From Escherichia coli (GTDB taxonomy: Bacteria; Pseudomonadota; Gammaproteobacteria; Enterobacterales; Enterobacteriaceae), in the NCBI RefSeq assembly GCF_003334815.1, contig NZ_QOWO01000009.1: a stretch of DNA of 64,000 bases. One strand, given 5' to 3'. Position numbers: made by a program. Numbering within the stretch: the stretch's first letter is position 1; every line of letters begins with the position of its first letter. This document shows, piece by piece, positions 32,101-35,100 of this stretch.

Positions 32101-35100
32101 TAGTCTTCGCAACGGCGATAGCCTGCGGGTCGCGATCGATCGCCAGCAAACGCCCCTCTTCGCCAAGCTGCGAGAGGATCAGACGTGAGTGACCACCGCG
32201 ACCAAAAGTCCCATCAATGTAGATGCCATCAGGACGGATATTGAGGCCATTAACGGCTTCATCCAGCAGCACCGTAGTATGTTTATAGTTTTCCATCATT
32301 TTATAGAGACAAGTCCTGCAGTCGCTCCGATAAGTCTCCGGTAGCCAACTGCTCTGCGTCGATATCTTCCTTGACCTGTTGATGCCAGGTTGTTTCATCC
32401 CACAGCTCAAACTTGTTGAACTGTCCAACCAGCATCACTTCTTTTGTCAGCCCGGCATGTTGCCGCAGTACTGGCGCGATTAACAATCGACCTGCGCCAT
32501 CCATCTGACATTCGCTGGCATGACCTAACAGTAGGCGCTGCACACGGCGCTCAACCGGGTTCATGCTCGACAGACGCGATAATTTTTGCTCGATAATTTC
32601 CCATTCAGGCAGGGGGTAAAGCAGCAGGCACGGGTGATAAATGTCAATGGTGCAAACCATTTGACCGGCAGCGTTCTCAAGCAGCTGTTCCCGATAACGG
32701 GTAGGCACTGATAAGCGCCCTTTGCTGTCGAGATTGACTAACGTTGCTCCCCGGAACATGCCAGCCTCACCCCTTATTCCCACTTTGCCCCACAATTTCC
32801 CACTGAAAGGAGTTTACGGAGCTGAGGAAAAGCTTGTCAAGCCAGTCACAAGGCATACCGAGGTAAAAAACCCGATGTTTACGGCTAATATCAGCGTTGT
32901 TTATTTTACGTCCAACGTGCGAAGCAAATTAACGTTATGAATAGCTGTAAGAAAAAATCCCTCATCGTCATCACCGTTTTAAAATGACTCACTATTTTCC
33001 ACAGCAAATATAAAGTGTCAGTTTGCGACGCGAGCGGCATTTTAGGACATATCTTCCCCGGTTAACAGTCCTTGTTACGTCTGTGTGGCGCTTGATGCCA
33101 GCGGGTTTGCGCAAAAGCAAAGAAAAGTGTTTGTTAAATCGGCAATTCATCGCCGCATGTAACAAAATAATGCAAAAACGCGCTGTCGATATCACTTAAT
33201 TATTGTGAATTTCAGCTGGTGAGTTAATTAACGGGCGGGTTTAAAAGCATTTATCAATAATAGTCAGGAATAGTCTTATTTACTTTAAGCATATTGATGT
33301 CCAGTCCCGTACTCTACGCGCCAGAGGGAAATTCACCTGGCGCGTATTTTTGTTCGCGGCTTAGCTACGGCTGAGCACGCCGCGGCGATAGAGATTACGT
33401 TTAATGCGCGTTAAACCAGGTTTTGGCTTACGCGGTTCGTCCAGGCTTGCCAGGACAATCTCCAGCACACGCTCTGCGACATCGCGGTGACGTTGAGCCA
33501 CTGCCAGCACCGGACACTGTAAGAAGTCGAGCAGTTCGTTATCGCCAAAGGTGGCAATTGCCAGGTCAGAAGGCAGTTTGCCGTCGCGACGCAGCGTGAC
33601 ATCCATCACTCCTTGCAACAACGCAAACGACGTTGTGAACAGCGCCTGCGGCATCGGATGCGTTTCCAGCCATTTTTCGAATAACTGGGCAGCCGCCTCC
33701 CGCTCATAGCTGTTGGCATACAGGAAATGCACTTCGCGCGGATCATCTTTCCAGGCAGTACGGAAACCTTGTTCACGCAGGAAGCTGACAGAAAGCTCCG
33801 GTAGCGCACCAAGATAAAGCACCGTCTCGGCGGGAAACTTACGTAACTCTTCCGCCAGCATTTCGGCATCATCCTGATCGGCACCAACCACGCTGGTGAA
33901 GTGTTCACGATCGAGGGCGCGGTCCAGCGCGACAATCGGGAACGGGTCGTTAGCCCAGCGTTGATAAAAAGGATGCTCAGGAGGCAACGACGTCGAAACA
34001 ATAATGGCATCAACCTGACGCTGTAAAAGGTGCTCAATGCACCGCATTTCGTTGTCTGGCTGATCTTCTGAGCAGGCAATCAGCAGTTGATAACCCCGTT
34101 GCCGCGCCTGGCGTTCAAGATAGTTAGCGATGCGGGTATAGCTGGTGTTCTCCAGATCGGGGATCACAAGACCAATAGAACGTGTGCGTCCAGCACGAAG
34201 CCCAGCTGCCACGGCGTTCGGGTGGTAATTGTGCTCACGCACCACAGCCATGACTTTTTCAACGGTTTTGTCGCTCACACGGTATTGCTTCGCTTTGCCG
34301 TTAATAACATAGCTTGCAGTGGTCCGCGACACTCCCGCCAGCCGAGCGATTTCATCCAGTTTCACAATTGCCCCTTGCGTAAAATGTAAAAACCATAGCC
34401 ATTGTACTGGTATGGGTTAAATTCATTAACATCTAAGCGCAGAAAATTAACTGCGGCAACTGCTTTTATTCCAGGTTCCCACTGATTTCGCAAAAAAAGC
34501 CCAACGTGACATGTTGGGCTGTAAATTGCGCATTGAGATCATTCTCAACGCATTATTTTATCGCCGCGCGAAAGTCCGACCACACCAGAGCGAGCAACCT
34601 CCACAATTTTCGCCACATCGCGAATCGATGCTAAAAATGCATCAAGCTTACCGCTGGTGCCTGCTAATTGAACGGTATAAAGCGAGGGTGTGACATCGAT
34701 AATTTGCCCACGGAATATTTCCGTATTACGTTTCACTTCGTCACGCCCGTAACCGCTGGCCTGAATTTTCACCAGCATGATTTCCCGCTCAACATGCGCG
34801 CCCTGCCCCAACTCACTCACGCGCAAGACATCGACCAGTTTGTGTAATTGCTTTTCGATCTGCTCAAGTACTTTTTCATCGCCCACGGTCTGGATGGTCA
34901 TACGCGATAATGTCGGATCGTCGGTTGGCGCAACGGTCAGGCTTTCAATGTTGTAGCCACGCTGGGAAAAAAGGCCAATCACGCGGGATAACGCGCCTGA
35001 TTCATTTTCGAGTAAGACTGATAATATCCGGCGCATAATCAGGTTCTCTCCGTTTTGCTTAACCACATTTCATCCATTCCGCCCCCGCGAATCTGCATCG

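Follow-up and report, generated by a model that had tools for sequence, protein, structure and literature searches.

Three phased GTGGG boxes upstream of mraZ, in a 64-kb stretch of the Escherichia coli chromosome (hereafter the window), very probably form the operator through which the MraZ repressor acts on Pmra, the sigma-70 promoter of mraZ and the downstream dcw genes. This operator is already known, and nothing biologically new is involved. The first-pass annotation of this DNA had claimed that the repeats match the described MraZ autoregulatory operator, and the claim is supported by the anatomy of the boxes, their position at Pmra, the residues of the cognate MraZ protein, the strict conservation of the repeats, and papers that cite the original description. 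Of the sources consulted, none places MraZ binding away from these repeats.

The triple repeat and the Pmra promoter

The dcw cluster of the window occupies the minus strand with 16 genes from mraZ to lpxC, mraZ being the first cistron, and the 701-bp stretch around the repeats is annotated cra / mraZ. On the minus strand, positions 32803-32779 read GTGGGAAATTGTGGGGCAAAGTGGG, that is, three GTGGG units separated by AAATT and GCAAA, and the box starts at 32803, 32793, and 32783 are exactly 10 and 10 bp apart. The plus strand over 32779-32803 reads CCCAC..., so that the GTGGG motif belongs to the minus strand, as do all the dcw genes. The first-pass annotation had placed three GTGGG direct repeats with 10-bp spacing at 32779-32803, between 20 and 44 nt upstream of the mraZ start and at the entry to a 16-gene dcw cluster. 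All of this holds: the repeats are exact and their coordinates right, with the minus strand to be added, the ATG at 32759 puts the triple at -44 to -20, and the sixteen genes lie downstream of it. The features of this region are listed in Table 1.

Table 1. Features of the mraZ promoter region in the window (positions relative to Pmra are counted from the predicted transcription start)
Feature	Coordinates	Strand	Description and basis
Published PdhR gel-shift probe over the -35 region	32818..32861	-	probe sequence in PMC3265435 Table 4 matches
Pmra -35 hexamer, TTGACA	32835..32840	-	consensus scan; conserved in Enterobacterales loci
Pmra -10 hexamer, TAAACT	32811..32816	-	consensus scan; mutagenesis primers (PMC7876045); conserved
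Pmra transcription start A (predicted)	32804	-	from the primers of PMC7876045; 7 nt after the -10 hexamer; 45-nt 5' UTR
Predicted MraZ operator, GTGGG-N5-GTGGG-N5-GTGGG	32779..32803	-	+2 to +26 of Pmra; sequence, uniqueness, conservation
Box 1, GTGGG	32799..32803	-	+2 to +6; conserved core GTGG at 32803-32800
Box 2, GTGGG	32789..32793	-	+12 to +16; followed by one more G
Box 3, GTGGG	32779..32783	-	+22 to +26
Putative Shine-Dalgarno-like GAGG	32765..32768	-	5 nt before the ATG; read from the sequence
mraZ coding sequence, 152 aa	32301..32759	-	ORF; annotated MraZ in RefSeq genomes

The pattern GTGGGN5GTGGGN5GTGGG has one match in the 64-kb window and none in 100 dinucleotide-preserving shuffles. 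GTGGG itself is present in 94 copies on both strands, from which 5e-5 triples are expected by chance. When the pattern is relaxed to a triple of GTGG, the expectation rises to 0.012, and the sole occurrence in the window is again the one upstream of mraZ. A chance origin of the GTGGG triple is excluded. MraZ operators are marked by at least three direct repeats with a GTG(G/T) core and by a period of about 10 bp, which keeps the repeats on one face of the helix, and the boxes described here are of this kind; they are also situated around the promoter and start site immediately before mraZ, where the dcw cluster begins.

A consensus scan places the sigma-70 promoter Pmra directly upstream of the boxes, with 10 of the 12 hexamer positions matching the consensus and a spacer of 18 nt. 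Sun et al. 2021 designed their mutagenesis primers with the same TAAACT as -10 element of this promoter, and their 'tssR' (Y-1 R+1 Y+2) primers change C-A-G (32805-32803) to G-A-G or T-A-T (PMC7876045). Because these primers treat C-A-G as the start-site triplet, the transcript would start at A32804, which is the base just before box 1. The boxes are one helical turn apart, stand in the orientation of the transcript directly after the -10 element, and begin one base past this start site. In an older mapping, the start reportedly lies some 38 nt before the ATG, which would place it between boxes 1 and 2 and would leave the conclusion on the operator unchanged.

Besides Pmra, two more promoter-like matches (9/12 each) are found on the minus strand at 33227-33199 and 33021-32994; both precede Pmra within the 600 bp between cra and mraZ. 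A further protein has been examined at this locus in previous work, namely PdhR, which gave a very weak gel shift with an mraZ probe (PMC3265435). The probe covers 32818-32861 at the -35 element, apart from the boxes, and PdhR was rejected as a binder of the repeats.

Conservation of the boxes and alternative readings

Species-representative genomes were scanned with an alignment of eight sequences, which gave 80 loci, all of them from Enterobacterales, and the window was added as the 81st sequence. These loci range from Escherichia albertii to Photorhabdus and Tatumella, and the identity of their MraZ proteins is between 76 and 95%. Every one of the 81 sequences contains exactly one GTGG-N6-GTGG-N6-GTGG upstream of mraZ, and no second copy was found elsewhere in the 444,060 strand-bases of these loci. 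The 12 core positions are invariant, with 2.0 bits each versus 0.0-1.8 bits in the spacers and flanks. The fifth base varies: it is G in 63/81 sequences in box 1 and 69/81 in box 2, and in box 3 it is G in only two, T being found there in 63 species. Since the 12 core positions are invariant while the fifth base varies, the conserved unit is GTGG and not GTGGG, and the threefold GTGGG is peculiar to E. coli. Within the spacers, the AATTT that precedes box 2 and the TAAA that precedes box 3 are conserved as well.

Box 1 starts 6-7 nt past the -10 hexamer in 75 of the 81 sequences, whereas box 3 and the ATG are separated by 20-21, 28-31, or 37 nt, depending on the class. The fixed distance on one side and the variable distance on the other tie the element to the promoter, and not to translation signals or the ribosome-binding site. 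This bears on a reading in which the repeats work at the RNA level, where a 5' UTR element with a structure or a bound protein would control the translation or stability of mraZ. The boxes are indeed transcribed (+2 to +26), and the E. coli ATG lies 20 nt from box 3. However, the boxes keep their distance from the -10 element and not from the ATG or Shine-Dalgarno sequence. The predicted fold of the 75-nt leader is no better than those of shuffled sequences (z = -0.22), its minimum-energy structure leaves the boxes unpaired, and an Rfam search gave no match in 32700-33400. On the fold score and the Rfam result, the RNA-element reading was rejected, and we give it a negligible probability beside the MraZ operator.

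The leaders show some further regularities. The short distance of 20-21 nt between box 3 and the ATG is found in Escherichia, Citrobacter, and some relatives of Enterobacter, while most others have 28-31 nt; a segment of approximately 10 nt, with a second copy of AAGGG(G)T, seems to have been lost or gained between the classes. Just past box 3, G is kept at +31 (69/81) and +32 (76/81), counted from box 1 (32772-32773 in the window), in short-leader and long-leader species alike. An in-register fourth box was considered at this place, where GGGT or GGGG is found and GTGG has no match in phase. These two Gs may belong to a degenerate fourth box or to a leader element that has nothing to do with the boxes.

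We also examined ten distant loci, which were obtained by exact-protein look-ups of representatives of 50%-identity clusters and come mostly from metagenome contigs, their MraZ proteins being 36-61% identical to that of E. coli. Phased GTG(G) boxes are present upstream of mraZ in nine of them. Six loci, L088 (Frischella), L089, L090, L091, L094, and L095, have three to six phased boxes. In L090, the boxes (146-190) form two pairs that are 31 bp apart and lie 215-255 nt upstream of the ATG, a distance which implies a long leader; in Frischella, the boxes are at -95 from the mraZ ATG. Two boxes are found in L092, where they are at the end of a truncated contig, and in L096 and L097, each of which has a degenerate third box, while L093 has no boxes within 400 nt upstream of mraZ. 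An extra GTGG pair was noticed in L097 on the opposite strand further upstream, at approximately 220-233. As for conservation of the repeats in other Proteobacteria, proposed at the outset as a check on the operator, the triple is seen in all 81 Enterobacterales sequences. Phased boxes are also present in nine of the ten distant loci, and the boxes are conserved at orthologous loci while their flanks diverge.

The far upstream boxes are relevant to another reading, in which the repeats govern promoter escape as an initial-transcribed-sequence or pause element, and are not a repressor site. It is known that a Gre-sensitive, sigma-70-dependent promoter-proximal pause occurs at the mraZ promoter with RNAs of 14-15 nt (PMC7876045), and +14/+15 map to 32791/32790, inside box 2. 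In the same study, however, pauses of this class (G1p) are explained by the start-site triplet, the -10 element, and the length of the spacer, and not by downstream sequence. Moreover, a pause signal would leave unexplained both the three equal units with their 10-bp periodicity and the boxes far upstream of the ATG in Frischella (-95) and L090 (-215 to -255). A pause element in place of the MraZ operator therefore appears very improbable.

It has also been considered whether the G-runs form a G-quadruplex (G4), in the non-template DNA or in the RNA of the 5' UTR, that controls the expression from Pmra or of mraZ. In the window, 32801-32770 on the minus strand contains four runs of at least three Gs with loops of 5-7 nt, which is the canonical G4 pattern. 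The 64 kb contain just two other matches to it, at 23888-23910 and 11053-11081, which are also on the minus strand. A G4 has been reported in PmraZ of S. aureus, where G-rich tracts are likewise found in the mraZ promoter region, and conserved G4 motifs have been claimed for Gram-negative species (PMC11796246); the E. coli sequence formally fits the pattern. Unlike in that proposal, the canonical motif is present in only 1/81 Enterobacterales sequences, the window itself; box 3 is GTGGT, GTGGC, or GTGGA in other species, and the fourth G-run has no fixed position. A relaxed motif with runs of two Gs is found in 67/81 sequences, but as a trivial consequence of the GTGG boxes. The predicted stability is marginal: the RNA G4 reaches only -2.0 kcal/mol and, once the coding start is included, loses to a hairpin and is gone from the minimum-energy fold. 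In addition, the invariance of GTGG including its T is the pattern of a motif read by a protein, and not of G-tracts. A quadruplex as the conserved function was rejected on the 1/81 conservation and the marginal stability predicted for the RNA, and as the explanation of the repeats we hold it to be highly unlikely.

A variant of this idea keeps the MraZ operator and lets it double as a G4 in E. coli, where a co-transcriptional quadruplex or R-loop might modulate the +14/+15 pause or the rebinding of MraZ. E. coli alone among the 81 sequences combines a G at the fifth position of box 3, which it shares with one other sequence, with a short 5' UTR, in which no more than 5 nt separate box 3 from the Shine-Dalgarno G-run, and the combination creates the canonical four-tract G4 motif, both in the non-template DNA and within the 35 nt at the start of the mRNA. 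The one piece of support for such double duty is this pattern match, and we regard the idea as highly doubtful too.

Variation within E. coli and other elements of the window

The 701-bp stretch around the repeats matches 5424 of 5426 complete E. coli genomes with 97-100% identity. Over the 66 bp that run from the -10 element to the ATG, 4829 of these 5424 genomes are identical, and approximately 547 more differ solely by a C-to-T change at position -1 (32805). When the 30-mer from -1 to +29 was used, an exact match of at least 28 nt was obtained in 5391 of the 5424 genomes having the region. A second common polymorphism, A/C at 32823, is located in the promoter spacer; the window has the minority A allele, as does the published PdhR probe for mraZ. 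Both common polymorphisms (32823 and 32805) are outside the boxes. The polymorphic -1 base belongs to the triplet at the start site, to which Sun et al. relate the sigma-70-dependent pause (PMC7876045).

One of the 5424 genomes, that of strain WS3294A (NZ_CP035819.1), has a 5-bp deletion of CAGTG, equivalent to 32801-32805. The deletion takes out the start site of Pmra together with the first three bases of box 1, and it may be either a natural operator and promoter mutant or an assembly error.

Several other elements were observed in the window. PssrA (RF02797) has a match of 105 bits, at the Rfam gathering level, at 17080-17169 (-), which is the ftsA-ftsZ junction of the dcw cluster. The REP-like naRNA4 (RF02564) is present as two copies at 10767-10960 (-) and as four copies with identical scores and 85-bp spacing at 55633-55953 (+). 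Known RNAs were also recognized, namely SgrS at 44800-45026 (-), the leucine operon leader at 38671-38820 (+), the TPP riboswitch upstream of thiB at 46783-46882 (+), and a match to STnc40 at 11364-11433 (-).

The MraZ protein, related operators, and repression of Pmra

The locus encodes the protein that would read the boxes. The MraZ of the window has two DXXXR motifs and the Lys and Arg residues that contact bases, as expected next to an MraZ operator; D11, K13, R15, D87, and R91 are all present, and these columns are invariant or nearly so in 30 diverse homologues. Homologues of the protein carry PF02381, and it is homologous to solved MraZ structures, including DNA complexes of 2026.

The closest known system is the Pmra (mraZ1p) operator of E. 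coli K-12 (Eraso et al. 2014, J Bacteriol 196:2053), which belongs to the same species and locus and apparently consists of the same bases; judged from the citing papers, no difference between it and the window was detected. In later papers, the target of E. coli MraZ is a set of repeats situated between the -10 box of Pmra and the first dcw gene, and its binding there represses Pmra (PMC7761207, PMC8475190, PMC12957436, bioRxiv 10.1101/2022.02.09.479790) and lowers the expression from mraZ to murC (PMC7761207). The repeats are named 'MraZ boxes' in PMC8475190, and both this paper and PMC7761207 attribute the direct binding of the boxes by E. coli MraZ to Eraso 2014.

Outside E. coli, the best resolved case is the operator of M. 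genitalium, for which a cryo-EM structure of the MraZ-DNA complex (2026) revealed cooperative binding, a 'cradle' motif of each subunit in one major groove, and the reading of TG(T/G) by Lys13, Arg15, and Arg86 (PMC12957436). The complexes were assigned by sequence match to PDB 9qlr, 9qlg, 9r4j, 9sx6, and 9sz7. This operator shares with that of E. coli the GTG(G/T) cores, the 6-nt spacers, the 10-bp period, and a transcription start at or inside box 1, and the contacting residues (Lys13, Arg15, and an Arg of the second domain) are all present in the E. coli protein. It differs in having four boxes instead of three and an A/T-rich context, AAAGTG[T/G] (PMC12957436), and M. genitalium MraZ is a distant relative (E = 8e-12) which forms an octamer, whereas E. 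coli MraZ is reported as a dodecamer.

The mra promoter of B. subtilis likewise has three GTGG-containing repeats with a 10-bp period, which are the only such triple in the genome and are needed for repression, but the unit is GTGG[A/T]G with 4-nt spacers, and its position relative to the -35 and -10 elements is different (White et al., bioRxiv 10.1101/2022.02.09.479790). In Burkholderia cenocepacia, the binding of MraZ to the repeats of PmraBc was shown by EMSA; these repeats are downstream of the -10 element and overlap the start, 'as in E. coli', but they are four repeats of 7 nt with 3-nt spacers (PMC7761207).

The anatomy found here agrees with what the literature describes for the operators of E. 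coli, B. subtilis, and M. genitalium. The box definition of Eraso et al. 2014 is said to be three direct repeats, TGGGN, with 5-nt spacers.

A mechanism for the E. coli operator can be proposed by analogy with the homologues. One MraZ subunit would occupy each box, with its 'cradle' motif entering one major groove and reading TG(T/G), and the base contacts in E. coli would probably be made by Lys13, Arg15, and Arg91 of the second domain, the counterpart of Arg86 in M. genitalium. Adjacent subunits of an opened oligomeric ring would then fill successive boxes cooperatively. RNA polymerase covers the DNA to about +20, and therefore an MraZ oligomer on +2 to +26 would overlap the downstream footprint of the polymerase and would either exclude it or block open-complex formation or promoter escape. 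The expected outcome is negative autoregulation of mraZ together with control of the promoter-proximal dcw genes in the same direction.

In the long-term evolution experiment, early adaptive mutations cluster in the region upstream of mraZ (PMC4301190). The comparative results, in which the GTGG core is invariant, the fifth base varies, and the element is anchored to the -10 hexamer, are a tidy confirmation and not a discovery, and the MraZ operator is a textbook case of negative autoregulation.
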